A stretch of DNA of 64,000 nucleotides from a virus (IMGVR_UViG_3300047440_000139:624-64623); one strand, 5' to 3'. Positions 6,700 to 36,019 are shown, numbered from the stretch's first letter. The notes: generated by a model not told the origin, from the sequence alone. Numbers and translations are program-made.

Positions 6700-6717
6700 G
6701 TTTACCCCGGGGTAAAC
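6700..6717. repeat. 18-bp palindrome copy 1
   Basis: GTTTACCCCGGGGTAAAC exact; 24 nt before ATG 6742. Confidence 0.97.
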
Positions 6718-6741
6718 ATTCACATATCAAGGATACTTGAA

Positions 6742-7518
6742 ATGACCAAAGCTACCCTTAAGACCATCTCCGCCGCGAACGTGTCCAAGGTTGTTGACGG
6801 CCTCGTTGCCGTTGCCGTCGAAGACGCAAAGGCCGGTGTGTCGCGCCTCTCGCAAGTCGCGGCCATCGTGCGTTCGCTAGGACGCCCGATCACCGGGGCG
6901 GAATGGGACAGTCTCGTGAAGCCCGGTCTAGTCGCCGGGCTGGAGAAGTCGAAGATCAAGAACCCGGGCGTCATGGCGTCGAAGTTCAAGACCGCCGGTC
7001 TTGGTCTCGCCTCCGGCCTCCCTCAGTTCAAGGCCAACGGCCGAACCCTGCGAGACTATCTCGCCGAGTGCGCCGCGCCGATCCGCGAAGCCGTCCTTAA
7101 GGACGGGCGTGCGATCGTGGACACGGCCAAGAACGGAGGGCGGAAGCCTACCACGGCGAAGGCCAAAGCCGCCGCGAAGGCCGCGAAGGCCACGGCCAAG
7201 GCGACCGAAACCCTTAGCGCGTCCAAGTCGGATGACGCGGGGCATGACGTGTCGCGCTATCACGCGCTCGCCGTGTCCCTGATGGGTTCCGAGGCCGCCG
7301 GGACGATGCTGCTGGCGATCCTTAAGGATCACCGCGCGGCGTTCGATCTGTGGGCCAAGGACCAACTGGCGAAAGCCGTGGACACGTCCAAGCCCGCGAA
7401 GGCCGCGAAGCCCGCGCCGGAACCGTCCAAGGACGACAAGGCCATTGCCGCGCAACTGCTGGCCATGGCCAACGCGTCCAAGGCGCGTGCCGACAAGGTG
7501 AACGGCAAGGCCAACTAA
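6742..7518 (+). CDS. Lys/Ala-rich hypothetical protein (first gene of the early arm)
   Basis: AAGGA RBS; 258 aa with AKAKAAAKAAKATAKA and KPAKAAKPA tracts; followed by a terminator. Confidence 0.8.
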   Translation: MTKATLKTISAANVSKVVDGLVAVAVEDAKAGVSRLSQVAAIVRSLGRPITGAEWDSLVKPGLVAGLEKSKIKNPGVMASKFKTAGLGLASGLPQFKANGRTLRDYLAECAAPIREAVLKDGRAIVDTAKNGGRKPTTAKAKAAAKAAKATAKATETLSASKSDDAGHDVSRYHALAVSLMGSEAAGTMLLAILKDHRAAFDLWAKDQLAKAVDTSKPAKAAKPAPEPSKDDKAIAAQLLAMANASKARADKVNGKAN

Positions 7519-7533
7519 CCCGAACGTCAACCT

Positions 7534-7566
7534 AACCCCGCGCCCATTGGGCGCGGGGTTTTTTTT
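7534..7566 (+). terminator. Intrinsic terminator
   Basis: AACCCCGCGCCC-ATT-GGGCGCGGGGTT followed by a T run. Confidence 0.9.
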
Positions 7567-7575
7567 GTGCCTTGC

Positions 7576-7593
7576 GTTTACCCCGGGGTAAAC
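7576..7593. repeat. 18-bp palindrome copy 2
   Basis: Exact (extends to 20 bp); immediately after the terminator. Confidence 0.97.
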
Positions 7594-7627
7594 GTCCCAC
7601 CCGTCTCACACTTGCGTCAACCCAGAC

Positions 7628-7659
7628 ACGCATGCGTCATTAGACGCATGCGTTTTTTT
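7628..7659 (+). terminator. Second intrinsic terminator
   Basis: ACGCATGCGTC-ATTA-GACGCATGCGT followed by a T run. Confidence 0.75.
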
Positions 7660-7669
7660 GTGCGTTGTC

Positions 7670-8000
7670 AAGGGGTTACCAGGCCACGTGAGGATGCGTC
7701 GCAGACATGGGCTGCAAAATCGGGGGCTCAGGGCTACCATTTGGTATCGTTGGTAATGTCCAAAATCGGGACGTTACCACGAGGATGCCAGGCCAACTCG
7801 CTGAAATTCCTCATTTAATTTATATAACTATATAGTTATCTGTATATTAGGACCAATAATCCGGCTCAAAATTGGACAGCCCCCCCACGCGCGCCCGGGC
7901 GCATGGATTTCGGGCGGCTGCGTCAGCCCCCAACCCTCCCAGCATTTGTCTTCCCAACCCAAAACCCCGGATTATTGTGAGACACCTGATTATTCCTTCA
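7670..8000. other. AT-rich non-coding region, candidate replication origin
   Basis: AT tract 7813-7860 containing the 16-bp palindrome ATAACTATATAGTTAT (7824-7839); CAAAATCGGG twice; inverted pair AATAATCCGG/CCGGATTATT. Confidence 0.45.
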
Positions 8001-8079
8001 AAATCAAATACTTCCACAACACTTGCCTCTCCCCCTGTATCGCGATACGTTGGACATCACCTCAAAAAAGGATGCTAAA

Positions 8080-8535
8080 ATGCCTCGACCGAGCAAGTTC
8101 TTCCCTGCGAATGGCCGTCTCAGCGTGGTGCTGACGCCTGAGCAGTTCTCCATGCTCGACGCATTGGCCATGTACTGGCGCATCACGCGCACCGCCGCAG
8201 TCATCCATCTGATCGAGCGCGCGGCCGAACTCAAAATCCCGTTCGACGTCACCGAGCAGAGCAGGATGTCCATCCGCTCACCGGACGCTCCTAACGACAA
8301 CGTCCATCTCCGATACGTTTCCATCCCTGGCGAGTACGGTGGTCCGTTGCATGTGTGGTGCTTCGATCCCGACGTGGATGGGAAGGTGAAGTTGGCCGAG
8401 CCGCAGTTCATCATCGGCAAGATCGACGACGTGGCCGCACTCAAAATTCCCAGGACCACGGTGGCCAAGGCTTTGACCTGGGCGGCGACGCACGCCTACC
8501 GTCCGCCGGGCTGGCCGCATCTGCCGCGCCCCTGA
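8080..8535 (+). CDS. Putative ribbon-helix-helix DNA-binding protein
   Basis: N-terminal RLSVVLTPEQFSMLDALAMYWRITRTAAVIHLIERA fits the CopG/Arc-like strand-helix-helix pattern; AAGGA RBS. Confidence 0.55.
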   Translation: MPRPSKFFPANGRLSVVLTPEQFSMLDALAMYWRITRTAAVIHLIERAAELKIPFDVTEQSRMSIRSPDAPNDNVHLRYVSIPGEYGGPLHVWCFDPDVDGKVKLAEPQFIIGKIDDVAALKIPRTTVAKALTWAATHAYRPPGWPHLPRP

Positions 8536-8547
8536 CCACAGAAAAAT

Positions 8548-8565
8548 GTTTACCCCGGGGTAAAC
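8548..8565. repeat. 18-bp palindrome copy 3
   Basis: Exact; 20 nt before ATG 8586. Confidence 0.97.
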
Positions 8566-8585
8566 GCTACGCTTAAGGTGGCCTC

Positions 8586-8894
8586 ATGAATGTCGAGCAG
8601 TCCTTCTATTCCAGGCCCGGACAACGCCAGGGCTCGCCGGGCATCCGCGTGGCCAGCCGGATCGAGAACCAGCTGACCGAGCTATACGTCACCGAGGAGA
8701 CGTTCAACCGGGCGGCGCATCTGGTCGACAGGCTGCAGCGGCGCGTTATCAGCCGCCGCCACTACCGCATCCTCGTGGCCATCATGATCGAGAACAGCCT
8801 CAGGACCGGGCAGGTGGAGGAGACAGAGCAGGTCATGCTCGTGCTGGCCAAGCTCTGGCGCAGCTGCCCGCAGCGGTACCTGACGTGGTGGTGA
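8586..8894 (+). CDS. Hypothetical protein
   Basis: 102-aa ORF, AAGGTG RBS, start of a run of overlapping ORFs. Confidence 0.65.
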   Translation: MNVEQSFYSRPGQRQGSPGIRVASRIENQLTELYVTEETFNRAAHLVDRLQRRVISRRHYRILVAIMIENSLRTGQVEETEQVMLVLAKLWRSCPQRYLTWW

Positions 8895-9115
8895 TCGACG
8901 ACTACCGGACGGCGGTCCAGCGCATCGTCCGCATCCTCCAGGCCGATCCCTCCGAGCGGTTCCCGGGTGACATCGAGGGCCAGCGTCACATCGCCAAGTC
9001 CGTCGACGCCTACCGCGCAGCGGTCACCGAACTGGTGCTGGCGGGGAACCTGAACATGGACCAGGGAGCCGAACTGATGGCCATGGTGGATCGCATTGTC
9101 GAGGAGATGAGATGA
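8885..9115 (+). CDS. Hypothetical protein (paralog of next ORF)
   Basis: Overlaps neighbours; shares DAYRA...QG..L...D.IV with 9112-9327. Confidence 0.7.
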   Translation: MVVIDDYRTAVQRIVRILQADPSERFPGDIEGQRHIAKSVDAYRAAVTELVLAGNLNMDQGAELMAMVDRIVEEMR

Positions 9116-9327
9116 CCGTCCCCATGATCCTCTCCACCGACATCCTGCACTCCACGAAGTTTCACGGTCGGGGATCCTCGGCGGTCTATCGCGCCCGCGT
9201 GGCCGCCAACCCCGACGCCTACCGCGCCGAGGTGGTCAGGGTGGTGATGGAGGGCGCGTTCACCACCGAGCAAGGCCAGCGCCTGCACGACATCATCGAC
9301 GCCATCGTGGCCGGAGGAGAACCCTGA
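9112..9327 (+). CDS. Hypothetical protein (paralog of previous ORF)
   Basis: ATGA overlap, GGAG RBS, shared motif. Confidence 0.7.
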   Translation: MTVPMILSTDILHSTKFHGRGSSAVYRARVAANPDAYRAEVVRVVMEGAFTTEQGQRLHDIIDAIVAGGEP

Positions 9328-9912: not shown

Positions 9913-10140
9913 ATGACAGCCACCTCCAAGATCACCGGCAAGCCCAAGGCCCGGCGCGGCTTCGCAGCCATGGACCCCGAGAAGCGCCGCGAGATCGCGC
10001 GCAAGGGCGGCGCGGCCACCCGGCCCGAGAACCGATCGTTCGCGAAGAACCGGGAACTGGCTGCGGAAGCAGGCAGAAAAGGGGGAGAAGCCTCGCGCGG
10101 CGGCGGCCGCAGCCGGAAGTACAAGCCGGAGCGCGACTGA
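9913..10140 (+). CDS. KGG-repeat general stress protein
   Basis: RGFAAMDPEKRREIARKGG...FAKNRELAAEAGRKGGEAS; AAGGA RBS. Confidence 0.88.
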   Translation: MTATSKITGKPKARRGFAAMDPEKRREIARKGGAATRPENRSFAKNRELAAEAGRKGGEASRGGGRSRKYKPERD

Positions 10141-10439
10141 TGGCCACCATTCCTGACCTGCGCAAGCGCCTGCTGGCGGTGGCCGACCGGCTGCCGTTCG
10201 CGGGCCTGCCCGAGCGCGTCGCCCTGGCCAAGGAACTGCGCGACATCGAGGCGCAGATGTACCGGCGGCCCTACGTCCGCAAGGCCCCGGCGTCCGCCAA
10301 CCACATGACCCCGGCCCTGGAGAAGCGCATCCGCCGCTACGCCTGGGTCCACCCCGACATGACCTATCAGGAGATCGGCACCCACTTCGGCGTCAACTCG
10401 GGACGCGTGTCCGAGGTGCTGGCAGGAAAGCGCGCGTGA
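10140..10439 (+). CDS. HTH domain protein
   Basis: C-terminal PDMTYQEIGTHFGVNSGRVSEVLAGK; TGATG coupling. Confidence 0.75.
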   Translation: MATIPDLRKRLLAVADRLPFAGLPERVALAKELRDIEAQMYRRPYVRKAPASANHMTPALEKRIRRYAWVHPDMTYQEIGTHFGVNSGRVSEVLAGKRA

Positions 10440-10968: not shown

Positions 10969-11335
10969 GACGACCATCAACGCCGACCTGAGCGAGATGC
11001 TGGAGATGCTGGTGCGCATCTCCATGCCCGAGGCCCTGCGATCCATGTGGGAGGGCCGCGAGGGCGCCCAGGACCACGTCGACGCCCTGCGCGCCGAGAC
11101 CATCCGGCTGCGCCTCACCGGCGAGCTTCCCGAGCACCTGTGCGTCAAGGTGCTGGACCGCTGCGACCAGCGTGAAGCTGTCTTGCAAGCGTCACCGACC
11201 CAGGCCACAACTTCACTGTTCAAACCCACTGGAGACCTGAGCGATGTCCGAGACCGATACGCCCGCCACCGAGACCCCCGCCACCGAGACCCCCGCCACC
11301 GAGACCCCCGTCACGATCCCCGATCCCGCGCCTGA
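10955..11335 (+). CDS. Hypothetical protein (3' part overlaps the acidic peptide ORF)
   Basis: Typical codon usage in the 5' part only; end uncertain. Confidence 0.5.
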   Translation: MATSRTTINADLSEMLEMLVRISMPEALRSMWEGREGAQDHVDALRAETIRLRLTGELPEHLCVKVLDRCDQREAVLQASPTQATTSLFKPTGDLSDVRDRYARHRDPRHRDPRHRDPRHDPRSRA

Positions 11336-11381
11336 GGCCGACGCTCCCGGGTCCGATGACCCGGAGCCCGACGCCGCCTGA
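11244..11381 (+). CDS. 45-aa acidic Pro/Thr-rich peptide
   Basis: GGAG RBS; MSETDTPATETPATETPATETPVTIPDPAPEADAPGSDDPEPDAA; stop codon overlaps palindrome copy 4. Confidence 0.6.
   Translation: MSETDTPATETPATETPATETPVTIPDPAPEADAPGSDDPEPDAA
11262..11309 (+). repeat. 15-bp tandem repeat, three units
   Basis: CCCGCCACCGAGACC repeated three times. Confidence 0.9.
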
Positions 11382-11397
11382 TTACCCCGGGGTAAAC
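11380..11397. repeat. 18-bp palindrome copy 4 (one mismatch)
   Basis: GATTACCCCGGGGTAAAC; abuts another inverted repeat ACGTGAGCCCGGCG/CGCCGGGCTCACGT (11396-11425). Confidence 0.92.
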
Positions 11398-11499: not shown

Positions 11500-12177
11500 A
11501 TGCGACTTCTCAAGACCCTGGCGTTCGCCGCCGCCGCGCTCAGCGTGGCGTTCTCGGCCCACGCCGTGACCTTCTCCTTCGCCCCGGGCTCCGACACCCC
11601 CGGCTCCGGCTATTCCCCGACCACCGGCTTCGTGGTCATCGACGACTTCAACCAGCTGTCCGACCTGAGCCCGTTCAGCGGCTCCGGCTTTGGCCTGCTC
11701 GGCCCCGGCAGCGACCCCTCTGGCGCGGACCCGGCCTTCCCGACCACCAACAACACCACCTATCTCTCGGTGCTCGGCGGCGGCTCGGCCACGGCCAACT
11801 TCGTGAACCCCTACAGCGGGTCGTTCCAGTTCGACTGGGGGTCGATCGACACCTACAACACCCTGACCATCCACCGCACCTCGGGCATCGACTTCGTGAT
11901 CAACGGCGGTCTGTTCCCCCCGGCGAACGGTGACCAGGGCGCCAGCGCCACCAACGGCGTGTTCACCGTCAACGCGGCGGGCGACTTCCTGACCGGCTTC
12001 ACCCTGACGTCGGGCCAGAACTCGTTCGAGATCGACAACTTCGCGGTGCGCGGCGGCATCAACCCGCTGACCGGCGGCGGCGTGCCGGAACCGGCGACCT
12101 GGGCGTTCATGATCATGGGCTTCGGTGGGGCGGGCTCCGTGCTCCGTCGCCGCCGCTCGGTGCTCGCCGCCATCTGA
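11500..12177 (+). CDS. PEP-CTERM (PEPxxWA-CTERM) exosortase-sorted surface protein
   Basis: Signal peptide ending SAHA; FDWGSIDTYN and SFEIDNFAV beta domain; C-terminal VPEPATWAFMIMGFGGAGSVLRRRR. Confidence 0.92.
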   Translation: MRLLKTLAFAAAALSVAFSAHAVTFSFAPGSDTPGSGYSPTTGFVVIDDFNQLSDLSPFSGSGFGLLGPGSDPSGADPAFPTTNNTTYLSVLGGGSATANFVNPYSGSFQFDWGSIDTYNTLTIHRTSGIDFVINGGLFPPANGDQGASATNGVFTVNAAGDFLTGFTLTSGQNSFEIDNFAVRGGINPLTGGGVPEPATWAFMIMGFGGAGSVLRRRRSVLAAI

Positions 12178-12366: not shown

Positions 12367-12536
12367 CAGGCAACTCCGAGGCGCTGGATCACGAGGATCA
12401 GGACGACGACGAGGGCGGCCACCGGGATGGCCCACTTGAGCCACGCGAAGGGCGGCGCGGCCGGGATGTAGTAGGCGATGCCGACGGCGATGCCGACAAT
12501 GACCATCATCACGATGGCGAACACCAGCAGGGACAT
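12366..12536 (-). CDS. 56-aa two-transmembrane protein
   Basis: AGGAGG RBS; MSLLVFAIVMMVIVGIAVGIAYYIPAAPPFAWLKWAIPVAALVVVLILVIQRLGVA. Confidence 0.75.
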   Translation of the reverse strand: MSLLVFAIVMMVIVGIAVGIAYYIPAAPPFAWLKWAIPVAALVVVLILVIQRLGVA

Positions 12537-12602
12537 GGGCGGGTCCTCCTGGCGGGCACCCTACGCCTGCACACGTCCCTGGCAAAGCTTCACAGTTACC
12601 GC

Positions 12603-12632
12603 TTGACGAGCCCCCGCGCGATGGGTACCCAT
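12603..12632 (+). promoter_or_regulatory. Possible promoter for RNA-2
   Basis: TTGACG-17 nt-TACCCA; the -10 lies in the 12-bp palindrome ATGGGTACCCAT. Confidence 0.4.
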
Positions 12633-12945
12633 GGTGAAGCCATGAGGCGCTTGCGCCGACGGTTCGGGGTGGTGGCCGTGATTAGCCCTCGCGGTCGCCA
12701 CCCCGTCGAGCTTAGCGACCCTGCCCGCGCTGGGGAGAGCGTGCGAGGGGTCGAACGAAGGACGTGACCACGGCCCCGACCGAAGGGACACGCGACCCTC
12801 GAACTTCCCCCGGTGGATGGTTGGACACGCCGCCGGGGGTTTTGGGTAGACCGCTGCGGAGCCACGCCCTCTGCACCCCCCGGTCTCGCGGGGGCGTTGG
12901 ACGGACTGGCCAAACAGTCCCGTTCGCAGCGGTCTTCCCAAGACC
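12630..12945 (+). ncRNA. Putative multi-stem non-coding RNA (RNA-2, about 320 nt)
   Basis: 17-bp stem 12665-81/12689-705 with 3 G-U pairs; stem 12716-53; stem 12807-16/12830-39; long stem 12840-58/12925-43 enclosing two hairpins; no credible ORF. Confidence 0.7.
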
Positions 12946-12946
12946 A

Positions 12947-12964
12947 GTTTACCCCGGGGTAAAC
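12947..12964. repeat. 18-bp palindrome copy 5
   Basis: Exact; directly after RNA-2, 22 nt before ATG 12987. Confidence 0.97.
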
Positions 12965-12986
12965 CCCCATATGCAGGACGCCTCTG

Positions 12987-13193
12987 ATGCGCGTTGAGAC
13001 CGTCACCCACCGCCGCATCGGCGCTATGGGCTACCCGACCGCCGTGTGGATGGTGTGGGAGGCCGTGCCGGGCACCACGCCCTTCGCCGTGGCCTTCTAC
13101 GAGCGCGAGCGCGCCGCCGCCTGGGCAGCCGCCGCCCCGCACCGGCACCTCAAGGCCGCCCCCACCCAGATCAAGGACGCGTGCGCATCATGA
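12987..13193 (+). CDS. Hypothetical protein
   Basis: AGGA RBS; ATGA overlap with the next ORF. Confidence 0.65.
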   Translation: MRVETVTHRRIGAMGYPTAVWMVWEAVPGTTPFAVAFYERERAAAWAAAAPHRHLKAAPTQIKDACAS

Positions 13194-13396: not shown

Positions 13397-13397
13397 C

Positions 13398-14032: not shown

Positions 14033-14074
14033 TTGACATGCCGATAACAAAGTCGTATACTTGGTATACAGTTA
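14033..14074 (+). promoter_or_regulatory. Sigma70-type promoter P1
   Basis: TTGACA-17 nt-TATACT, followed by ACAGTT shared with P2 and P3. Confidence 0.85.
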
Positions 14075-14103
14075 GGGATTGTCCCTGAACTGGCCCCGGG
14101 ACC

Positions 14104-14121
14104 GTTTACCCCGGGGTAAAC
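14104..14121. repeat. 18-bp palindrome copy 6
   Basis: Exact; 22 nt before ATG 14144. Confidence 0.97.
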
Positions 14122-14143: not shown

Positions 14144-14287
14144 ATGGCCAAGCACAGCGACTACCCGAAGGGCAAGACCACCCACCGCGACCCGCAGCCC
14201 GCCCCCAAGGCGGACTGGAAGCGCGACCGCTGGGAACAGCGCAACGCCAAGACCATCGCCCGCCGCAACGTGACGGGGGGGTTCTGA
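14144..14287 (+). CDS. Small basic protein (47 aa)
   Basis: AAGGAG RBS; MAKHSDYPKGKTTHRDPQPAPKADWKRDRWEQRNAKTIARRNVTGGF. Confidence 0.7.
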   Translation: MAKHSDYPKGKTTHRDPQPAPKADWKRDRWEQRNAKTIARRNVTGGF

Positions 14288-14572: not shown

Positions 14573-15171
<599 letters not shown>

Positions 15172-15172
<1 letters not shown>

Positions 15173-16146: not shown

Positions 16147-16568
16147 GCGTAGCGGAGAGGTTCTGGTCGAAGGTCGACGTGCGTGGGCCTGACGAGTGCT
16201 GGCCGTGGATGGGACGCACGGACGACGGCGGCTATGGTCGCTTCACCGTGGGCCGTGGGAACGTCGTGGCTTCCAGGGTTGCGTGGGAGCTTCACAATGG
16301 ACGGTCGCTGCCGGAAGGCCAGAAAGCCCTGCACTCCTGCGACAACCCGCCCTGCATGAACCCCGCTCACCTCTGGGCTGGGACGCAGGCCGAGAACGTC
16401 GCTGACGCCGTGTCCAAAGGGCGAGCGCCTCAGTTCGTCAGGCGGTCGCATTGTAAGCGTGGCCACGAGAGAACCGAGGCCAACATCTACGTCACACCTA
16501 ACGGCAAGCGACAATGTCGTGCCTGCCAGTGCTTGGCGCGGACCCAGTATAACAACCGTAACCGTTAA
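16143..16568 (+). CDS. HNH homing endonuclease
   Basis: RFWSKVD...ECWPW...GYG...RVAWEL...LHSCDNPPCMNPAHLWAGTQAENVAD plus HCKRGH...RQCRAC. Confidence 0.9.
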   Translation: MSVAERFWSKVDVRGPDECWPWMGRTDDGGYGRFTVGRGNVVASRVAWELHNGRSLPEGQKALHSCDNPPCMNPAHLWAGTQAENVADAVSKGRAPQFVRRSHCKRGHERTEANIYVTPNGKRQCRACQCLARTQYNNRNR

Positions 16569-16578: not shown

Positions 16579-16596
16579 GTTTACCCCGGGGTAAAC
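16579..16596. repeat. 18-bp palindrome copy 8
   Basis: Exact; 22 nt before ATG 16619. Confidence 0.97.
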
Positions 16597-20967: not shown

Positions 20968-21009
20968 TTGACATGCCCATAACAATAGTGTAGACTAGAA
21001 TACAGTTGG
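20968..21009 (+). promoter_or_regulatory. Sigma70-type promoter P2
   Basis: TTGACA-17 nt-TAGACT then ACAGTT; spacer resembles P1 (TGCCnATAACAA). Confidence 0.85.
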
Positions 21010-21040
21010 AGATCGGCTCCAGCTGCACCCCACCCCCGGC

Positions 21041-21058
21041 GTTTACCCCGGGGTAAAC
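21041..21058. repeat. 18-bp palindrome copy 9
   Basis: Exact; 17 nt before ATG 21076. Confidence 0.97.
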
Positions 21059-21075: not shown

Positions 21076-22107
21076 ATGAACCCCAAGCTTTTCATCGAGA
21101 CCGCCGTGGCCCGCATGGACCACCAGCGCACCACCGGCAGGATCATGTCGCCGCTGCTCCTGCTGGCCCAGCCGGGCGTCGGCAAGACCAAGTGCGTGGA
21201 GCAGGCGGCGGCCAAGGCAGGCGTCGGCTACATCCACATCCACGGACCGGCCATGCCCGCCGAGGACTTCGGCGTCCCCGTCCCCGTGCCTGAGAACGGC
21301 TCGCTGGAGTTCTTCATCCCGCTCGGGAAGTTCCCGTTCGAGGGCGACGACACGCACCCCGAGTTCGGGATCATCAACATCGACGAACTCGCTGGCATGA
21401 ACAACGACCAGCAGAAGGTCGTGGCCAACATGATGCAGGAGCGGGAACTGCACGGCCGCAAGCTCAAGCCCGGCTGGCTGTTCATCTGCACCGGCAACCG
21501 CCAGGAGGACCGGGCCGGGGCCAACCGCATCCTGTCGCACCTCAACGACCGCTACATCACCATCCACTTCGAGACCAAGACCGACGACACCATCGAGTGG
21601 ATGCTGCAGAACGGCGTCCGGCCGGAGGTGATCGCCTTCCTGCAATGGCGATCCGACCTGATCGCCCCGCCCTTCGACCCGAACATCGAGAAGAACCCGA
21701 CGCCTCGGGGCTGGGCCGAGCGGGTCAGCCCTGAGATCGCATGCAACCCGAAGGCGGCGCTGTTCGAGGTGATCAAGGGCGCGGTCGGCGAGGGCGCGGC
21801 GGTCGAGTTCATGGCCTTCAACGACACCTTCATGTCGCTGCCCGATCCCGATCTGGTGCTGGCCAAGCCGGACACCTTCCACGTCCCCGACGAGGCTCAC
21901 ATCCTGTACGCCCTGATCGGTGCGCTGATCGCTCGGGTGAAGGCCGACACGTTCCCGGCGTTCATCACCTACGTCAGCCGGATGCCGCCCGAGTTCATGG
22001 TCATGGCCATGCGGAACGCCATCACCGCCCACGGCCAGCTGACCCAGACCAAGGCGTTCACGTCCTGGGCCGGGACCGCTGGGGCCAAGGCCCTGTTCAG
22101 CCGCTGA
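21076..22107 (+). CDS. MoxR-like AAA+ ATPase
   Basis: Walker A QPGVGKT, Walker B INIDEL, TGNRQED sensor, LNDR, PTPRGW. Confidence 0.88.
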   Translation: MNPKLFIETAVARMDHQRTTGRIMSPLLLLAQPGVGKTKCVEQAAAKAGVGYIHIHGPAMPAEDFGVPVPVPENGSLEFFIPLGKFPFEGDDTHPEFGIINIDELAGMNNDQQKVVANMMQERELHGRKLKPGWLFICTGNRQEDRAGANRILSHLNDRYITIHFETKTDDTIEWMLQNGVRPEVIAFLQWRSDLIAPPFDPNIEKNPTPRGWAERVSPEIACNPKAALFEVIKGAVGEGAAVEFMAFNDTFMSLPDPDLVLAKPDTFHVPDEAHILYALIGALIARVKADTFPAFITYVSRMPPEFMVMAMRNAITAHGQLTQTKAFTSWAGTAGAKALFSR

Positions 22108-22110: not shown

Positions 22111-22128
22111 GATTACCCCGGGGTAAAC
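22111..22128. repeat. 18-bp palindrome copy 10 (one mismatch)
   Basis: GATTACCCCGGGGTAAAC, followed by a core-only copy ACCCCGGGGT at 22131-22140. Confidence 0.92.
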
Positions 22129-22165
22129 CCACCCCGGGGTCCACCCAACAGAAGGAACCTACACC

Positions 22166-23035
22166 ATGAGCCTCTCCGAACGAGCCATCCTCACCACCCT
22201 GAACGTCAGCCAGTGGACCGCCCGCAAGCTCGACAACGACGAGACCCTGGCCGTCAACCGCAAGCACGGGCTGGCCATCCAGGCGGCGCGCGTGAACAAG
22301 AACCTGCTGCCGACCAAGAACAACGAACTGCAGGTCCTGCAGCAGGTGACGGGCATGATCCGCAAGGACTTCGACAAGCACACCCTGCCCTGGTCGGTCG
22401 ACGGCATGCGCATCCTCAAGAGCGAGGCGTACATGGACTTCTCGAAGGAGGTGCGCGGCTGGCAGGACAGCTGGGAGCATGCCCGGGACACGTTCATCCG
22501 GGCCTACCCGCTGCTCAAGGCGGAAGCCTGCACGGCGCTGGGCTCGATGTACGACGACAGCGACTACCCGTCGTCCGACGACCTGTACCACCGCTTCCGG
22601 TTCGACGTTCGCTTCATGCCGATCGCCGACGACCGCGACTGGCGCATCGACGTGGGCGACGACGTGAAGGCGCAGCTGCAAGCGGACATCCGTGCCCAGC
22701 TTGAGGAGGTGGAAGCGGCCGCCATGGGTGAGGCGTGGTCCCGGGTGAGCGACGTGCTGGAGAAGACCGTCGAGCGGCTGGCCAATCCAGGGGCCATCTT
22801 CCGGGACAGCCTCGTCGACAACGCCATCGAGCTCTGCGCCATCATGCCCTCGCTCAACATCTCCAACGACCCGGACATGGAGGACGTGCGCCGGACCATC
22901 GAGCGCACCCTGGCCAAGTTCAGCGGCAACGTCGACGCCCTGCGCCACGACCCCATCGAGCGCGAGGATGCCGCCCACGCCCTGGCCGACGTGATGCGGA
23001 AGATGGCAGGCTACATGCCCCAGCGAGCGGCTTGA
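22166..23035 (+). CDS. Conserved helical phage protein (DUF3150-like)
   Basis: SQWTARKLD, TLPW..DG.RIL, DYPS...L..RF, FRDSLVDN, LNI.NDP; positioned between MoxR and VWA genes. Confidence 0.65.
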   Translation: MSLSERAILTTLNVSQWTARKLDNDETLAVNRKHGLAIQAARVNKNLLPTKNNELQVLQQVTGMIRKDFDKHTLPWSVDGMRILKSEAYMDFSKEVRGWQDSWEHARDTFIRAYPLLKAEACTALGSMYDDSDYPSSDDLYHRFRFDVRFMPIADDRDWRIDVGDDVKAQLQADIRAQLEEVEAAAMGEAWSRVSDVLEKTVERLANPGAIFRDSLVDNAIELCAIMPSLNISNDPDMEDVRRTIERTLAKFSGNVDALRHDPIEREDAAHALADVMRKMAGYMPQRAA

Positions 23036-23297: not shown

Positions 23298-23315
23298 GTT
23301 TACCCCGGGGTAAAC
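23298..23315. repeat. 18-bp palindrome copy 11
   Basis: Exact; 20 nt before ATG 23336. Confidence 0.97.
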
Positions 23316-23335: not shown

Positions 23336-24484
23336 ATGACCACCGATATCCTCAAGCAGAAGCTGTCGTCGGCGAAGACCGCGCTCGTCGTCGACAACGC
23401 CTTCATCGCCAGCCTGCTGTGCAGCCTGCGCGTGACCTGGGACGACAAGCTGGAGCCGCCGACCATGGTGACCGACGGCCACATGCTGACCGTCTGCCCC
23501 GCTCACATCGAGAAGCTATCAGCCCAGGAGCTACGCTTCGCCCTGGCCAACATCACCATGCGTCTGGTGTTCAACTGCCACCTCCGCAGCCGGGTCGGCC
23601 AGCGGAACCCGGTCAAGTGGGACGTGGCCTGTGACGTGGTGATCAACGCCATGCTGGAGCACGAGAAGCGCGACGGCCGCTCGACCGTTGGCCAGCGGTG
23701 GGACGACGCCATCCGCGAGCCGCACCTGTACGAGAAGGCGGGCAAGACCATCGAGGGCGTCTATGCCCTGCTGCCTGACCCGACCCCCGAGCAGGAGGGG
23801 AACCGCCAGGGCGTCCAGATTTTCGACGGCAGCGAGAGCGAGATGTCGGAGGCCGAGGCCCGGATGCACGTCCGTGTGGCCCAGGCCCGCGACGTGGCCC
23901 GCATGGCGGGGAACCTGTCCGAGAACATGGCCCGCTACGTCGGCGAGGAACTGACGCCCCGCATCCGCTGGCAGGATGTGCTGCGGGACTTCTTCACTCG
24001 CCGCATGGCCACCGAGATGTCGTGGGCCCGGCCCTCCCGCCGTGGTCTGGCGCAGGGCATCCTGCGTCCCGGCAAGGACGGCACCGGCATGGAGGAGATC
24101 GCCATCGCCGTGGACCTGTCGGGGTCGGTGAGCCCGTCCGAACTGCAGGAGTTCCTGACCGAGCTCCGGGCCATCAAGGTGGACTGCCAGCCGTTCCTGA
24201 CCCACGTCCTCTACTTCGCCTCCAGCGTGACGAAGTACGAGGTGTTCGGGCAGGACGACGAGTTGGACCTGCGGCCCAACGGCAGCGGCGGCACGGCGTT
24301 CTCGCCGATCTTCCGCTACCTGCGGGACCACGACATCGTCCCGGCCGCCACGGTGGTGCTGACCGACCTGTACTGCGCCGACTACGGGTCCACCCCGGAG
24401 TACCCGGTGCTGTGGGTGTCGACCGGCGCGGCTGGCCCGACCCCGTTCGGCCGGGTGACCATGCTGCGGGAGCAGTCCTTGTGA
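23336..24484 (+). CDS. DUF2201-like VWA protein with a degenerate metallopeptidase-like N-domain
   Basis: TMVTDG, WDVACDVVIN, SWARPSRR, MIDAS VDLSGS, GGT, LTD; the expected HExxH reads NITMR. Confidence 0.85.
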   Translation: MTTDILKQKLSSAKTALVVDNAFIASLLCSLRVTWDDKLEPPTMVTDGHMLTVCPAHIEKLSAQELRFALANITMRLVFNCHLRSRVGQRNPVKWDVACDVVINAMLEHEKRDGRSTVGQRWDDAIREPHLYEKAGKTIEGVYALLPDPTPEQEGNRQGVQIFDGSESEMSEAEARMHVRVAQARDVARMAGNLSENMARYVGEELTPRIRWQDVLRDFFTRRMATEMSWARPSRRGLAQGILRPGKDGTGMEEIAIAVDLSGSVSPSELQEFLTELRAIKVDCQPFLTHVLYFASSVTKYEVFGQDDELDLRPNGSGGTAFSPIFRYLRDHDIVPAATVVLTDLYCADYGSTPEYPVLWVSTGAAGPTPFGRVTMLREQSL

Positions 24485-30712: not shown

Positions 30713-30714
30713 TC

Positions 30715-31562: not shown

Positions 31563-31564
31563 CC

Positions 31565-32173: not shown

Positions 32174-32307
32174 TGGGCGAGGTGACCGAGATGATCTTGG
32201 ACGGCCTGCTCTGCGAGCGGTGCGGGACCGTGGTCGACGGCCAGGAGGCGGGCTTCCCGCGCCTGTGCGAGGACTGCGAGAAGGAGCCCGACGATGAAGA
32301 CGCCTGA
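32173..32307 (+). CDS. 44-aa zinc-finger peptide
   Basis: MGEVTEMILDGLLCERCG...GFPRLCEDC. Confidence 0.65.
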   Translation: MGEVTEMILDGLLCERCGTVVDGQEAGFPRLCEDCEKEPDDEDA

Positions 32308-32629
32308 GGCCCGGGTGAAGGACGAGATCAAGGCGTGGCTGCGGGCGCAGGCCAACTGCTGGTTCTTCATGCCCGCCGCCCACGGCTACGGGGTGAACGG
32401 CATCCCCGACATCGTGGGCTGCTACCGGGGGACGTGCTTCGCCGTCGAGGTGAAGGCCCCCGGCAAGCTCAAGCAGGTGACGCCTCTCCAGCAGATGCAG
32501 ATCAACGAGATCAACAACGCCCACGGCTGGGCCTGCGCGGCGGACGGGCTGCCGCGCGTGGTCGAGATGTTCCGCCTGATCGACATCTCGCTGGGCTACC
32601 CCGTCGCGCCGAAGGAGGCCAGGGCATGA
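32294..32629 (+). CDS. VRR-NUC domain nuclease
   Basis: TPE..VK, GIPDI, AVEVKAPG, T.LQ. Confidence 0.88.
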   Translation: MKTPEARVKDEIKAWLRAQANCWFFMPAAHGYGVNGIPDIVGCYRGTCFAVEVKAPGKLKQVTPLQQMQINEINNAHGWACAADGLPRVVEMFRLIDISLGYPVAPKEARA

Positions 32630-34406: not shown

Positions 34407-34407
34407 C

Positions 34408-34449
34408 TTGACTTGCCTCCCGGAATATCGTATACTAATAGACAGTTGG
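34408..34449 (+). promoter_or_regulatory. Sigma70-type promoter P3
   Basis: TTGACT-17 nt-TATACT then ACAGTT. Confidence 0.85.
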
Positions 34450-34471
34450 AACTGAACAGAAGGACCTACCC

Positions 34472-34864
34472 ATGGCAGCCGTGAACATCACCAATCTGGT
34501 GACCCAATACATCGCCGCCCGCGACCTAAAGTCCAAGCTCGACGCGGCGCACAAGACCAAGCTCGAACCGCTGGTCGCCGCGATGGACAAGACCGAGGCG
34601 GCGATCCTCGACTTCTTCAACAAGCACGGCATGGACAGCGCCAAGTGCGACGCTGGCACCGCGTACAAGGCCAGCCGCACCTCGGCCACGGTCAACGACA
34701 TGGACGCCTTCCTCGGCTTCGTGAAGGAGAACGAGGCGTGGCACATGCTGGAGCGTCGCGTCGCCAAGACGTCGATCGACGAGTACGTGACCGAGCACAA
34801 GGACCTGCCCCCGGGCATCAGCTACACCAAGATGGCGGCCATCAACGTCCGCCGCGCGTCGTAA
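34472..34864 (+). CDS. Conserved phage hypothetical protein (replication module)
   Basis: AAGGA RBS; coiled coil, GTAY, LERRV, PPG. Confidence 0.75.
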   Translation: MAAVNITNLVTQYIAARDLKSKLDAAHKTKLEPLVAAMDKTEAAILDFFNKHGMDSAKCDAGTAYKASRTSATVNDMDAFLGFVKENEAWHMLERRVAKTSIDEYVTEHKDLPPGISYTKMAAINVRRAS

Positions 34865-34873
34865 GGAGACCGC

Positions 34874-35965
34874 ATGCCTAACGCACTGACCACTCCCATG
34901 GGCGGGGCTGTCCCCGCTCACATCCAGAAGGCGTTCGCCGCCCAGCAGGGCAACGCCGCCCTCGCCCAAGGCGTGAGCGCGGGCTACCCGATCATCTCCT
35001 ACAAGGGGAAGGTCTGGCACATCGTCGAGGGTGGCGAGCGCACGCTCATCACCATCGGCGAGGGCCGCAACGCCAACGATCCGGCCGCCTCCCTGGAGGC
35101 CGTCATCCTGCTGGCCAACCCGGCGCTCAACAAGGTCTACTACCCGGACGGCTACGAGGAAGGCTCGACCGAGCGGCCGCTCTGCCACTCGGATGACGGC
35201 GTCGTGCCCGCTGCCGACGCGCAGGAGAAGCAGTCGAAGTCCTGCGGGGTGTGCCCCTACAACGAGTGGGGGTCCAAGATCAGCGACACCGGCTCGCGCG
35301 GTAAGGCGTGCGCAGACAGCCGCCGCATGGCCATCGCCTCGCCGGACGATCTCGACACGCCGATGCTGCTGCGCTGCCCGGCCGCCTCGCTCAAGACGCT
35401 GCTCTCCTACGGGCAGCAGCTGGACAAGCGCGGCTGGCCGTACTTCGCCCTGGTCACCCGCATCGGGTTCGACAGCAGCCTCGCTTACCCGGCGCTGACG
35501 TTCACCCCGGAGCGCTGGCTGGACGAGGACGAACTGGCCGCTGTGATGGCCAAGCAGAAGGACGATCTCGTCCTCAACATCACGGCCATGCAGCCGTCCA
35601 AGACCGCCGCCCCGGCCCCGGCCGCCGAGCCCGAGGACGATGCGTTCGCCCGCATGGAGGCGGGGATGGCCAAGTCCGACGCCGCCGCTCCGGCCCCGGC
35701 CGCCGCGCCCCCCAAGCGCCCCCGGAAGCCGCGCGCCGCCGCGACCACCGCCGAGGTGGCCGCCGCCCTGCAGCCCGAGCCCCAGCCGGAACCGCAGGCC
35801 GAGCCGCCCGCCGCCCGCAAGGGCTTCGGCGCGAAGCGCACGGCCCCGGCCGCCGCGCCGGTGCAGGCCGCCCCGCCGCCCGAGGATGACGAACTCGGCG
35901 ACGAGGCGCTGTCCGAACTGGAAGGCGTGCTCGCGGGCTTCGACGACGAGGAAGGCGAGGAATAG
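34874..35965 (+). CDS. Putative single-stranded DNA-binding or annealing protein
   Basis: KVYY, P.CHS.DG, C..CP.N.WGS, GKAC..SRR, PAASLK; acidic C-terminus. Confidence 0.6.
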   Translation: MPNALTTPMGGAVPAHIQKAFAAQQGNAALAQGVSAGYPIISYKGKVWHIVEGGERTLITIGEGRNANDPAASLEAVILLANPALNKVYYPDGYEEGSTERPLCHSDDGVVPAADAQEKQSKSCGVCPYNEWGSKISDTGSRGKACADSRRMAIASPDDLDTPMLLRCPAASLKTLLSYGQQLDKRGWPYFALVTRIGFDSSLAYPALTFTPERWLDEDELAAVMAKQKDDLVLNITAMQPSKTAAPAPAAEPEDDAFARMEAGMAKSDAAAPAPAAAPPKRPRKPRAAATTAEVAAALQPEPQPEPQAEPPAARKGFGAKRTAPAAAPVQAAPPPEDDELGDEALSELEGVLAGFDDEEGEE

Positions 35966-35976
35966 TCCCCTGACCT

Positions 35977-36019
35977 GGGCCGGGCGTTTACCCCGGGGTA
36001 AACGCCCGGCCCCTTTTTT
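35977..36019 (+). terminator. 36-bp perfect palindrome plus T run (terminator-like) containing palindrome copy 12
   Basis: GGGCCGGGCGTTTACCCCGGGGTAAACGCCCGGCCC then CTTTTTT; 18-mer at 35986-36003. Confidence 0.85.

Follow-up and report, generated by a model that had tools for sequence, protein, structure and literature searches.

Two groups of actinobacteriophages carry dispersed short repeats that are the closest described parallels to the elements analysed here. The Microbacterium phages of Cluster EG (Hyperion, Squash and OneinaGillian), siphoviruses without a repressor or integrase, contain 8-10 copies of an 18-bp inverted repeat with the consensus GATCAACCNNGGTTGATC, which lie in short intergenic spaces among the non-structural genes, as a rule 14-22 bp ahead of a start codon, and whose function is given as unknown in the part of that report drawn on here (PMC7302621). 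The mycobacteriophages of Cluster O, which are not obviously temperate, carry 17-bp repeats, TGTTCGGNNNCCGAACA, of which Corndog has 34, and in the portion of the paper used here the authors read them as sites of a DNA-binding dimer whose role is not the control of initiation (PMC4351075). The genome studied here (G000) belongs to a podovirus-like, uncultured soil phage from IMG/VR (64.6 kb; record of 64,623 bp), whose nearest named relatives are Rhizobium and HMO-2011-type podoviruses and in which 12 copies of an 18-bp palindrome, GTTTACCCCGGGGTAAAC, punctuate the early/replication arm. Positions are numbered from the first letter of the 64,000-nt window, the whole stretch of DNA that was analysed.

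Results

The first-pass annotation had listed 12 palindrome copies, and a motif scan returned exactly these, with 12 matches at up to 3 mismatches where 0.01 were expected and at least 12 matches in 0 of 100 shuffles. Ten copies are exact and two, at 11380 and 22111, carry a T-to-A change at position 2 (the GATTAC variant); the centre, which had been described as invariant, is CCGG in 12 of 12. Scanning the full 64,623-bp record gave the identical 12 copies and none beyond, and no degenerate copies were found: besides register echoes there were 3 matches at 3 mismatches, against 2-4 in Markov controls. All 12 lie on the plus strand in the early/replication arm, where 11 of the 18 intergenic gaps of at least 25 nt hold a copy, and the minus-strand virion arms have none (0 of 7 such gaps; Fisher p = 0.0078), as the annotation had remarked. 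A scan of candidate hosts, proposed at that stage, shows that the palindrome is not a host repeat: across 185,579 bacterial species, each represented by one genome (596 Gb in all), the exact 18-mer gave 7 single matches, a chance level, which is unlike a REP/RAYT-type repeat abundant in host chromosomes. Exact matches in the metagenome_contigs set (11, all single) were likewise at chance level, and the viral_contigs set held none.

Nine of the 12 copies end 17-37 nt ahead of a start codon, immediately 5' of the Shine-Dalgarno (SD) sequence; seven of them do so at 17-24 nt, the distances of 24, 20, 22, 22, 22, 17 and 20 nt reported earlier being correct, and two more, at 22111 and 35986, at 37 and 36 nt. 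Copy 1 (6700-6717) stands 24 nt before the first early gene (6742-7518, plus strand), which is hypervariable and encodes an Ala/Lys-rich protein of 258 aa. Copy 3 (8548-8565) follows the stop of gene 8080-8535 by 12 nt and precedes the ATG at 8586 by 20 nt; copy 5 (12947-12964) occupies the 3' end of a gap of 450 nt, with the ATG at 12987 22 nt on; and copy 8 (16579-16596), which has syntenic counterparts in the relatives G001, G002 and G003, lies 10 nt after the stop of an HNH ORF (16149-16568) and 22 nt before the ATG (16619) of a 567-aa gene. The GATTAC-variant copy 10 (22111-22128) begins 3 nt past the ATPase stop codon, beside a second core, ACCCCGGGGT, at 22131-22140, and the ATG at 22166 follows after 37 nt, while copy 11 (23298-23315) has a stop 2 nt before it and the ATG at 23336 20 nt after it. 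Four copies (8548, 16579, 22111 and 23298) therefore start 2-12 nt past the previous stop, in agreement with the earlier remark that several begin within about 12 nt of one.

Copies 6 (14104-14121) and 9 (21041-21058) occupy the leaders of two plus-strand sigma70-like promoters, TTGACA-17-TATACT at 14033-14061 and TTGACA-17-TAGACT at 20968-20996, each leader consisting of a 5' hairpin and then the palindrome, followed by the ATG at 14144 (22 nt on) or that of the AAA ATPase gene at 21076 (17 nt on). The 5' hairpin of the second leader (~21003-21025) shows compensatory changes in relatives, and copy 9 has syntenic counterparts in G001-G004. From the ends of the -10 boxes (14061 and 20996) it is 42-44 nt to the first bases of the palindromes (14104 and 21041), which confirms for both promoters the first impression that the palindromes are clear of the -35/-10 boxes. 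A third sigma70-like promoter (34408-34436, plus strand) has a short leader without a palindrome. Copy 12 (35986-36003) forms the apex of a hairpin with a 16-bp stem (35977-36012) that is followed by CTTTTTT, and the ATG at 36040 lies 36 nt on.

The remaining three copies have no start association. Copy 2 (7576-7593) is flanked by two plus-strand intrinsic terminators, one after the first early gene (7534-7570, a 12-bp stem with a T-run) and a second at 7628-7663, and lies beside an origin-like region; the GATTAC-variant copy 4 (11380-11397) has its first two bases within the TGA of a small ORF (11244-11381) and is followed by a second hairpin and then, ~100 nt away, by the next start at 11500; and copy 7 (14846-14863) lies within gene 14573-15172, where it is read as VYPGVN. 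Start proximity recurs in G001, in which 9 of 11 copies, as 9 of 12 in the study genome, stop 15-43 nt short of a start, on the 5' side of the SD in every case and with none nearer than 15 nt. Four large gaps (420, 450, 133 and 128 nt), two of which also contain a promoter and 5' hairpin, all have their copy 17-24 nt before the start, an outcome with a probability of ~2e-4 under uniform placement. Inspection of all 12 contexts revealed nothing in common between the flanks beyond the SD.

At syntenic sites the relatives carry palindromes of other types, GATTGCA-CSG-TGCAATC, AATTGCC-N4-GGCAATT, AATTGCT-N4-AGCAATT and GGTTAAACGTTTAACC, with 11 copies each in G001 and G003, 6 in G002, 4 in G007 and 3 each in G011 and G004. 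In the motif of the Rhizobium phage the mismatches comprise 20 G.T and 20 A.C, without RNA-type asymmetry, and the 3' arm often overlaps the SD, as it does in the G004 palindromes. Copies are near-identical within one genome, and types differ even between phages with 93-97% identical terminases, namely G000 and G007 (terminase 93%, portal 91%) and G003 and G011 (terminase 97%, portal 92%); palindrome type is not congruent with the genome phylogeny. In the leader of the orthologous ATPase gene the promoter, 5' hairpin and SD align across relatives and the palindrome alone is swapped. The arms of G004 equal those of the study genome (GTTTACC), and from lineage to lineage like arms enclose spacers of either 3 or 4 nt. 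In G000 and G007 the dyad continues through the palindrome centre, in G001 the central base is the sole freely varying position (G in 7 copies, C in 4, never A or T), and in G003 (11 of 11), G002 (6 of 6) and G004 (3 of 3) the spacer is constant in length, with a variable and non-palindromic sequence. Among 50 listed copies, none has a G-U-type or compensated variant in the 7-bp arms, and in 8 the flanks prolong the dyad by at least 3 bp, against 2.6% expected. G001 and G007 have two post-terminator copies each. That equivalent places hold different palindromes points to a phage regulator that evolves rapidly and to the sites it recognises. Confinement to the early arm, the chance level in bacteria and the concerted switching at syntenic sites support the initial proposal of genome-wide punctuation through a trans-acting factor; the mechanisms proposed with it stand only in part.

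Across eight lineages, palindrome-arm identity follows the identity of the first early protein (exact Mantel r = 0.693, a value reached in 156 of 40,320 permutations, p = 0.0039; 0.004 to 0.012 when single lineages are left out), a correlation drawn from few, related lineages in which part of the signal could be linkage, as the gene adjoins 2-3 sites. Seven control proteins gave r of -0.06 to -0.26: the terminase, the portal and the products of 5249, 4831, 8586, 9327 and 9913. Of these genes, 8586, 9327 and 9913 follow the first early gene at a distance of 1-3 kb. Restricting the comparison to the six ATTGC-type lineages weakens the correlation (r = 0.58, p = 0.078). Between G003 and G011 the 9913 product is 90% identical and the first early protein only 32%, and between G000 and G007 the first early protein is only 21% identical despite 93% identity of the terminase. 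No homologue of the first early protein was detectable in G004, although its arms are those of the study genome.

The first early protein is predicted to form a symmetric homodimer (score 0.80, against 0.00 for the best of 3 controls), with runs that share at least 37% of contacts and a partner pLDDT of at least 67; the mark used for this call separates 20 of 30 pair-solved proteins from 1 of 23 single-chain ones, a calibration that is only roughly valid here, with our own alignment used. Its AF2 model is helical (pLDDT 66.7). Searches of Pfam and PHROGs yielded no family match, a PDB profile search nothing below E = 0.86, and Foldseek of the model against PDB and BFVD no match at E <= 0.001.

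Three other proteins had been put forward initially as possible binders of the palindrome, and none of them fits well. The product of 8080-8535 (plus strand), a weakly called RHH-like candidate DNA binder, occurs only in part of the clade and is missing from G001 and G003, each with 11 palindromes. The small protein of 10140-10439 (plus strand) has a C-terminal sigma70-region-4-like HTH, below the Pfam cut-off, with a recognition helix conserved across palindrome types, and the XRE-like HTH protein of 36040-36312 (plus strand; read by eye) has an identical recognition helix in G000 and G002, which have different palindromes. A six-frame search found no ParB_N domain (control positive in 11 of 14 genomes). 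No Phage_integrase was found either (control positive in 14 of 14 genomes), so silencing in lysogeny cannot be the rationale of the sites.

Discussion

Our preferred reading, to which we give somewhat less than an even chance, is that the palindromes are binding sites of a dimeric immediate-early protein, the product of 6742-7518, and together form a global operator array for a phage that looks lytic. Synthesis of the protein would come first, from the leftmost early transcription unit, itself closed by strong terminators, and the protein would then occupy the dozen sites in early-arm leaders and intercistronic spacers as double-stranded DNA rather than RNA. Occupancy of this global operator or roadblock array may modulate the passage of host RNA polymerase along the early/replication arm or its output there, and the protein might also regulate its own gene. 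Each lineage would have its own specificity because protein and sites would evolve as a cognate pair.

Several features of the sites suit this proposal. Near-identical copies, with no degenerate ones and a chance level elsewhere, argue for a trans-acting, phage-specific factor, and the dyad through the centre, the S-only centre of G001, the fixed spacer length and the absence of G-U variants suggest a symmetry of DNA type. We also count in its favour the 3 of 12 copies outside 5' leaders, including one in a coding sequence and one past a terminator near the origin-like region, and the weakness of the RNA hairpin. To these we add the palindromes of other types at syntenic sites in relatives, the co-variation with the first early protein, its predicted homodimer and the Cluster O authors' reading of their comparable repeats as sites of dimeric proteins (PMC4351075). 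The many near-identical, dispersed and element-specific sites that mark an operator array are present. Counted against it are the start association, which a plain operator or roadblock model would not predict, the lack of a recognised DNA-binding fold or family in the candidate, and the location of the sites clear of strong promoters. Like arms with 3- or 4-nt spacers would suit a hairpin better than a rigid dimer, and G000 and G004 have arms in common without a candidate homologue in G004; the flank-extended dyads, the weaker correlation among ATTGC-type lineages and the negative integrase search count on the same side. Among the three mechanisms first suggested, a dimeric phage DNA-binding protein fits best, with the 6742-7518 product co-varying in place of the three proteins then named.

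The start association is more readily accommodated if the sites work as RNA, the main rival reading, which we regard as possible though on the unlikely side and in which short 5'-leader or spacer hairpins outside the ribosome footprint would be read by a lineage-specific phage partner, possibly the first early protein, for lambda N/nut-like terminator resistance, translation control or the definition of processed mRNA ends. Eleven of the 12 palindromes are non-coding, on the strand that is transcribed in the early arm; they keep to the region 5' of the SD both here and in G001 and to the start-proximal end of large gaps, and two lie within promoter leaders and not over the promoters. N proteins are small and Arg-rich, boxA stands beside boxB, and the lambda order is pL-nutL-N-tL1; the succession of promoter region, site, first gene and strong terminators resembles this order. 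Before 36040 flank-extended stems with compensatory changes occur in four genomes, G004 having a plain hairpin there, and this points, from comparison of the genomes, to a hairpin at least at that site. Spacer length that varies between like-armed lineages, and a 3' arm that covers part of the SD in G004, as it often does in the Rhizobium phage, also accord with an RNA element. Self-complementarity, however, reaches into the would-be loop (CCGG; C-S-G), where a hairpin has no need of it, and in G002 and G003 the loop sequence is unconstrained though its length is constant within a genome. Other folds win in 3 of 8 contexts, fold z-scores run from +0.98 to -1.31 in 5 of 8, some palindromes lie just past strong terminators and one inside a coding sequence, the Lys/Ala-rich, 258-aa predicted dimer is unlike the small Arg-rich N proteins, and the mismatches of the Rhizobium phage motif are even. 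A 7-bp stem of ~-7 kcal/mol that gives the minimum-energy fold in just 5 of 8 contexts makes T7-like RNase III sites, the form in which RNA processing was first suggested, unlikely.

A recombination joint, the last of the mechanisms initially offered, is an improbable account, on which the palindromes would mark the 5' edges of cassettes as joints, or as a small element (PeSL-, REP- or attC-like) that is mobile or spread by gene conversion, and would owe their within-genome identity to copying and not to a binding partner. Cassettes do change directly upstream of the sites: the unit of palindrome, SD and gene is retained while upstream content varies, the 567-aa gene has four different upstream neighbours in G000-G003, the HNH ORF stops 10 nt short of copy 8, and in G002, G003 and G004 an extra gene separates the ATPase gene from a 289-aa gene, the palindrome following it, preceding it or being absent. 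The G/C flip of the G001 centre base likewise looks as if copies fit either orientation. Copying nevertheless leaves unexplained the concerted change of type between lineages in conserved replication genes and the tracking of type with one protein; 18 bp is very short for homologous exchange, the flanks have nothing in common beyond the SD, and no recombinase or transposase was found in a search that included tyrosine integrases. Contig joints, on weak data, do not coincide with sites, and the Cluster O authors describe few rearrangements at their repeats in the part of their account used here (PMC4351075).

We give little credence to binding by a host regulator or nucleoid protein, with palindrome types differing because hosts differ. 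It would fit the lack of a phage DNA-binding fold linked to the sites and the like arms of G000 and the distant G004, which do not have the candidate protein in common, but G000 and G007, and G003 and G011, probably share hosts and yet have different palindromes, and the exact 18-mer is at chance level in the 185,579 species sampled. Hairpin promoters of an N4-like phage RNA polymerase are barely credible: the layout, with a giant gene where the two arms meet, the stem-loop size and the position of sites 17-24 nt before starts are N4-like, but the giant 2867-aa protein matches only PLxRFG/DarB-like virion proteins, a PF00940 search run without a positive control gave no RNA polymerase family match, and strong sigma70-type promoters stand ahead of two copies.

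Comparison with known systems

The palindromes can be set beside several described systems. They share with the Cluster EG repeats the 18-bp inverted-repeat form, the start-proximal position among non-structural genes (here in 12 copies) and a genome without repressor or integrase. They differ in sequence, phages and hosts, all unrelated, the study genome being a high-GC podovirus-like one with Rhizobium and HMO-2011-type relatives, in the lineage-own sequences of its clade, and in having a candidate partner, for which no counterpart is named in the part of the Cluster EG paper drawn on here (PMC7302621). With Cluster O they have in common, as far as the portion of that paper used here describes its repeats, invariant 7-bp arms, a variable centre without orientation bias, many intergenic copies and a sequence not found in host genomes; the Cluster O repeats, in contrast, are genome-wide, about one third intragenic and not closely start-linked, and lineage-specific switching is not reported for them in that portion (PMC4351075). 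The Rhizobium phage motif resembles the Cluster O pattern more than the study genome does. The motif differs from both GATCAACCNNGGTTGATC and TGTTCGGNNNCCGAACA, and its copy number and start proximity, which match those of the Cluster EG type, make it the same kind of element and not the same family.

The phiC31 CIRs, the P1 C1 operators and the L5 stoperators are operator arrays of global regulators, and the KorB OB palindrome, with a count of 12, is TTTAGCSGCTAAA. In the parts of the accounts used here, the OB operators of RK2 form the global-regulator array of a mobile element (PMC11790492) and stoperators are asymmetric (PMC4351075). Like these arrays, the study genome has about a dozen or more near-identical, dispersed, short and element-specific sites, many of them distant from promoters, and the centre base of the KorB operator is S, as in the G001 palindrome. 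The known arrays are each bound by one element-encoded protein, for which the putative counterpart here is the candidate 6742-7518 product. They differ in that the study genome lacks ParB_N, a recognised repressor fold and lysogeny genes and has its sites start-proximal and in one arm; the stoperators are, in addition, oriented, unlike palindromes.

With lambda N/nut the resemblance lies in a hypervariable first early gene behind a site and before terminators, in what would be lineage-specific protein-hairpin pairs and, for copies 1, 6 and 9 only, in would-be hairpins within untranslated RNA downstream of early promoters and upstream of terminators. Copy 2 after a terminator and copy 7 in a coding sequence are unlike it, and there are 12 sites instead of two, no boxA was seen, and perfect DNA palindromes accompany a large, Lys/Ala-rich predicted dimer. 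T7 RNase III sites are long, irregular hairpins that are cut by a host enzyme and are not sequence-identical, and the PeSLs of T4-type phages carry an early promoter. Both are, as here, stem-loops that recur between early genes and keep their positions in relatives. The study genome departs from the former with identical copies and 7-bp stems, only copy 12 lying in a 16-bp stem, and from the latter in that only 2 of 12 copies are near a promoter.

In a wider interpretation, which we offer with more doubt than confidence, a lytic podovirus clade would possess a new type of specificity module, in which a fast-evolving, novel-fold, homodimeric immediate-early protein reads a dozen start-proximal palindromes, as DNA or as RNA hairpins, and gates expression of the early/replication arm, protein and sites switching together between near-identical phages. 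If true, lytic phages would fall into orthogonal 'regulatory types' analogous to the immunity groups of temperate phages, and the same principle could also explain the orphan repeats of the Cluster O and Cluster EG actinobacteriophages.

Number, specificity and placement of the palindromes

Our rescan of the window for GTTTACCCCGGGGTAAAC at up to three mismatches recovered 12 matches against an expectation of 0.01, precisely the 12 copies listed in the first-pass annotation (starting at 6700, 7576, 8548, 11380, 12947, 14104, 14846, 16579, 21041, 22111, 23298 and 35986), and the entire 64,623-bp record holds no 13th. Ten copies are exact, those at 11380 and 22111 share one T2>A change, and the central CCGG is invariant in all 12, as had been claimed. 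A looser scan (arms with up to three mismatches, spacers of 2-5 nt) added, besides register echoes, three hits with three mismatches, and Markov controls gave 2-4; because degenerate copies stay at this control level, the family is all-or-none. The exact 18-mer occurs in no other viral contig, as seven single hits among 185,579 species represented by one genome apiece (about nine are expected from length alone by our own arithmetic) and as 11 single hits in metagenome contigs; in none of these three collections is it a multi-copy element, and the arms-only pattern gave single chance hits among the matches listed in viral contigs. The palindrome set is real and highly non-random, and the 18-mer is neither a common repeat nor a host repeat, an outcome that the first-pass annotation had named as refuting its reading.

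The window spans bases 624-64623 of the record, which CheckV rates as 100% complete; GC content is 67%. A GC3-based gene call places + strand genes at 6.7-39.2 kb, whose products include an AAA ATPase, a DUF2201/VWA protein, DNA polymerase, exonucleases, VRR-NUC, helicase and primase, and - strand genes at 0.2-6.3 kb and 39.2-64 kb, among them those for portal, terminase, capsid and a PLxRFG/DarB-like protein of 2867 aa (39236-47839, - strand). In its last ~800 residues this product matches giant virion proteins of the PLxRFG/DarB-like kind from podoviruses (Bcep22-like, Klebsiella and Pseudomonas), and its counterpart in the related genome G001 measures 2292 aa. Among named phages, Rhizobium phage RHph_TM3_14A (portal 40% identical) and podoviruses of the HMO-2011 type come closest, and the searched phage collection contains no close relative at the DNA level. 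The window is represented in metagenomes from soil and rhizosphere. Neither a tyrosine integrase nor a ParB_N domain was found in the genome search, and Pfam and PHROGs searches of ~50 products returned no further DNA- or RNA-binding family. A + strand gene of the early arm at 11500-12177 (refined start) encodes a secreted protein that begins with a signal peptide and carries PEP-CTERM (Pfam E 1.8e-6) at its C-terminus; the gene is moron-like and gives a hint that the host is Gram-negative and possesses an exosortase. Two + strand genes resemble HNH homing endonucleases: one at 4245-4694 (PHROG HNH E 5e-45), with weak tblastn matches in G003 and G005 (39-40% identity) and none in the other relatives compared, and one at 16149-16568 (Pfam HNH_3 E 4e-9), which ends 10 nt upstream of the palindrome at 16579 and whose locus holds other genes in G001-G003.

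All 12 palindromes lie in the + strand early arm. They occupy 11 of 18 intergenic gaps of at least 25 nt there versus none of seven in the virion arms (Fisher p=0.0078), which bears out the observation that the virion arm lacks them. Nine of the 12 are followed by a start codon at 17-37 nt (24, 20, 22, 22, 22, 17, 37, 20, 36), across an interval that contains a Shine-Dalgarno (SD) sequence of GAAGGA type besides a CA-rich spacer, and several follow the previous stop by 2-12 nt; both the start proximity and the stop proximity noted at first reading thus hold. The four large gaps of 420, 450, 133 and 128 nt all carry their copy at the start-proximal end, for which uniform placement gives a probability of ~2e-4, with the caveat that two of these gaps also contain a promoter and a 5' hairpin. 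The copies at 14104 and 21041 each sit in the leader of a strong sigma70-like promoter (+ strand; 14033, TTGACA-17-TATACT, and 20968, TTGACA-17-TAGACT), behind a 5' hairpin and 42-44 nt beyond the -10 box, in agreement with the claim that -35/-10 boxes are not overlapped. A third sigma70-like promoter, at 34408, is without a palindrome. All three promoters share ACAGTT right behind the -10 box (14033-14100, 20968-21030, 34408-34445), and two of the three are followed by a 5' hairpin whose pairing is kept by compensatory changes in G001-G003. Other copies have individual settings: the second (7576) lies between two intrinsic terminators downstream of the first early gene, next to non-coding, AT-rich sequence containing iteron-like repeats; that at 11380 overlaps a stop codon; that at 14846 is intragenic; and that at 35986 forms the apex of a hairpin with a 16-bp stem, followed by a T-run. 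Additional copies of the palindrome core are ACCCCGGGGT at 22131-22140 (2 nt downstream of the copy at 22111) and CCCCGGG at 14090-14097 (7 nt upstream of that at 14104); in RNA folds these cores compete against the hairpin of the full palindrome.

Concerted replacement of the palindrome among relatives

We drew 64 related loci from a terminase alignment and then compared whole or partial genomes. The window's motif is absent from the relatives, both in a scan of G001 and in the viral-contig search with the exact 18-mer, and most relatives have a palindrome of their own: GATTGCA-CSG-TGCAATC in G001 (11 copies) and L028; AATTGCC-N4-GGCAATT in G003 (11 copies); AATTGCT-N4-AGCAATT in G002 (6 copies) and L010; GATTGCG-CYAG-CGCAATC in the partial contig G011 (3 copies); AATTGCC-N3-GGCAATT in L016-L018; GGTTAAACGTTTAACC in the partial contigs G007 and G008 (4 and 3 copies); and GTTTACC-N4-GGTAAA(C/T) in G004 (3 copies). 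More distant relatives (terminase 56-63% identical) show no palindrome in the stretches compared. The sites occur at syntenic positions, namely upstream of the first early gene, behind its terminator, in the two promoter leaders, ahead of the 567-aa gene, on both sides of the ATPase gene and inside a long hairpin ahead of the helix-turn-helix (HTH) gene 36040. Across four genomes the promoter, 5' hairpin, SD sequence and start of the ATPase leader align and the palindrome alone is swapped; the hairpin there has nine pairs, three of them with changes on both sides. Palindrome replacement is concerted and lineage-specific, which calls for a sequence-specific, phage-encoded partner and not merely a structure. 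Palindrome type is also uncoupled from genome phylogeny, and at the site before gene 9913 the flanks of G003 and G011 align while the palindrome differs.

Two further repeats were observed. RHph_TM3_14A (L006 and L096, MN988472.1) carries GTTACCT-N3-5-AGGTAAC, with arms similar to the window's GTTTACC, 59 times at up to two mismatches (Markov controls 0-1); it lies on both arms, with 33 copies inside annotated genes, while of the intergenic ones 15 precede a start by no more than 40 nt and 11 are placed elsewhere; the 3' arm of start-proximal copies often doubles as the SD sequence, and its mismatches have no RNA-like asymmetry (20 G.T, 20 A.C). A (T)GATCAC-N2-4-GTGATC(A) inverted repeat is found as a single copy in each of L009-L011, L013-L015, L017, L020, L023-L025, L028 and L029, always in a conserved position to the structural side of terminase.

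The first early gene as candidate partner

One gene combines a conserved position with exceptional sequence divergence: the first early gene (6742-7518, + strand, 258 aa), flanked by the palindromes at 6700 and 7576. Homologues of its product were found in 14 records or loci (E<=1e-3), with pairwise identities of 16-53% among the eight lineages retained after lineage duplicates (L023, equal to G011; L025 and L026, to G003; L017 and L018, to L016; G008, to G007) and the weak hit L040 were left out. Across these lineages, which are few and related, its identity tracks that of the 7-nt palindrome arms (exact Mantel r=0.693, 156 of 40,320 permutations, p=0.0039; r=0.672 with spacer length added; leave-one-out p 0.004-0.012), and the six ATTGC types alone give r=0.58 (p=0.078). 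Control proteins gave r of -0.06 to -0.26 (terminase, portal and the products of 5249, 4831, 8586, 9327 and 9913, the last three being early genes 1-3 kb downstream of the candidate). G003 and G011, with different palindromes, share 97% identity in terminase, 92% in portal and 90% in the 9913 product, and 32% in the candidate protein; G000, the window's own genome, and G007 are 93% identical in terminase and 21% in the candidate. Against the candidate, G004 has arms as in G000 but no detectable homologue of it.

Sequence searches of Pfam, PHROGs and PDB gave no match for the product, and an Atlas search none carrying a family. AF2 with an 8-row alignment (mean pLDDT 66.7) models a helical N-terminal domain at ~10-125 (pLDDT 76-92), a disordered Lys/Ala-rich linker and C-terminal helices, for which Foldseek returned nothing at E<=0.001 in PDB or BFVD; that these searches recognise no binding fold counts against the candidate. 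A two-copy prediction scored 0.80 (best of three controls 0.00), on a tool whose mark is reached by 20 of 30 one-chain pairs and 1 of 23 single chains, a calibration that is approximate since our own alignment was used; contact agreement between runs was at least 37% and partner pLDDT at least 67. The modelling thus supports a symmetric homodimer.

Other candidate partners were rejected. The first-pass annotation had proposed the products of 8080, 10140 and 36040 as binders, and none fits: in the HTH products of 36040 and 10140 the recognition helix stays conserved whatever the palindrome type (that of 36040 is identical in G000 and G002), and the family of 8080 is patchy, being confined to G000, G002, G007 and L010 and absent from G001 and G003. 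The ribbon-helix-helix-like nature of the 8080 product was read by eye and from Atlas neighbours; at 0.85-0.86 these neighbours count as leads and no more. Neither the 8586 family nor the 24481 product, with its C-terminal HTH-like region, has a type-specific pattern. Among alignment columns in which G000 equals G004 and differs from G001-G003, the top share is 6 of 90, too few to use, in the VRR-NUC-like nuclease (32294-32629, + strand; 60% identical to distant G004, 61-66% to G001-G003).

Recognition on DNA or RNA, and other readings

The mechanism to which we tentatively give the most weight is a cognate pair in which a dimeric immediate-early protein would act on its sites in DNA. The dimeric DNA-binding protein of the first-pass annotation is thereby carried forward on the strength of co-variation and the predicted homodimer, with the first early gene in place of the three products once proposed. 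We weigh recognition of DNA above that of RNA because the dyad passes through the centre (CCGG in 12/12 in G000; also in G007), because G001 varies freely only at the central base (G in seven copies, C in four, A or T never), and because spacer length is fixed per genome (G002 6/6, G003 11/11, G004 3/3) while its sequence is variable and non-palindromic. The arms of 50 copies, moreover, contain no G-U-type or compensated variant. An RNA-level version of the cognate pair is the main rival, one to which we give somewhat less weight: the RNA hairpin reaches just ~-7 kcal/mol and prevails as minimum-energy fold in five of eight contexts, adjacent CCCCGGG-like runs pairing with half of the palindrome in the other three (6700, 14104, 22111), and copies stand right behind strong terminators (G000, G001, G007) and one inside a coding sequence. 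Action on RNA would nevertheless suit the association of sites with starts at distances never below 15 nt, their placement within leaders and not over promoters, the occurrence of like arms with 3- or 4-nt spacers in different lineages, and the extension of the dyad by at least 3 bp of flanking sequence in 8 of 50 copies versus 2.6% expected. It would suit above all the 36040 site, where four genomes hold a 13-16-bp stem by compensatory changes and G004 a plain hairpin.

The product of 6742-7518 could instead be an origin protein, because its gene is linked to two or three sites and to an equally lineage-specific origin-like region. This non-coding, locally AT-rich stretch (7660-8079), which follows the two terminators and looks like a replication origin, carries iteron-like repeats of CAAAATCGGG type and of GTTACCA..GAGGATGC type; its G001 counterpart (~12530-13050) has TTGGAACAAT-type repeats, with a matching stretch also in L007, and between G003 and G011 the region and the first early gene have been replaced together.

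Another reading, also raised at first pass, makes the palindromes recombination joints or mobile elements. It draws on the retention of the palindrome-SD-gene unit among relatives whose upstream cassettes vary, but an 18-bp repeat is short, the searches turned up no recombinase, and copying leaves the tie to one protein unexplained. DNA contigs from four soil or rhizosphere runs offered fragmentary pieces and short-sided joints, none at the sites, which weigh neither for nor against this reading. Given that near-identical phages have different palindrome types, binding by a host factor is unlikely. Hairpin promoters of the N4 type are very improbable: no virion RNA polymerase was found, and the N4-like reading of the giant gene was rejected.

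Relation to known phage repeats

The closest published descriptions are the 18-bp inverted repeats of lytic Microbacterium Cluster EG phages, present in 8-10 copies 14-22 bp before starts (PMC7302621), and the 17-bp repeats of Cluster O mycobacteriophages, present in 34 copies and read by their authors as sites for dimeric DNA-binding proteins with an action other than on initiation (PMC4351075). In several lytic phages, identical short inverted repeats ahead of non-structural genes have been described but not explained (PMC4351075, PMC7302621). The palindrome set is a variant of this known, unexplained kind of phage repeat; new here are the phage group, on whose repeats our literature search found no paper, the wholesale exchange of palindromes from lineage to lineage at syntenic sites, and a candidate partner picked out by co-variation. 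The clade adds a series of relatives whose repeat sequence has been exchanged throughout, position for position, and a palindrome type that is decoupled from genome phylogeny and tracked by a single hypervariable gene, turning a descriptive puzzle into a directly testable one of one protein and one 18-mer, in cognate versus non-cognate pairs. If the pairing is true, lytic phages would possess global regulation of a type-specific form, which could restrict or steer recombination among relatives that co-infect a cell, and compact orthogonal protein/site pairs would become available for high-GC hosts. Judged by how it would work, the palindrome set comes closest to the operator array of a global regulator, as with KorB on RK2 (PMC11790492). 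Other arrays of this type are the phiC31 CIRs, the P1 C1 operators and the L5 stoperators, and the likeness to all of them is one of working principle, not of recognised protein-family membership.
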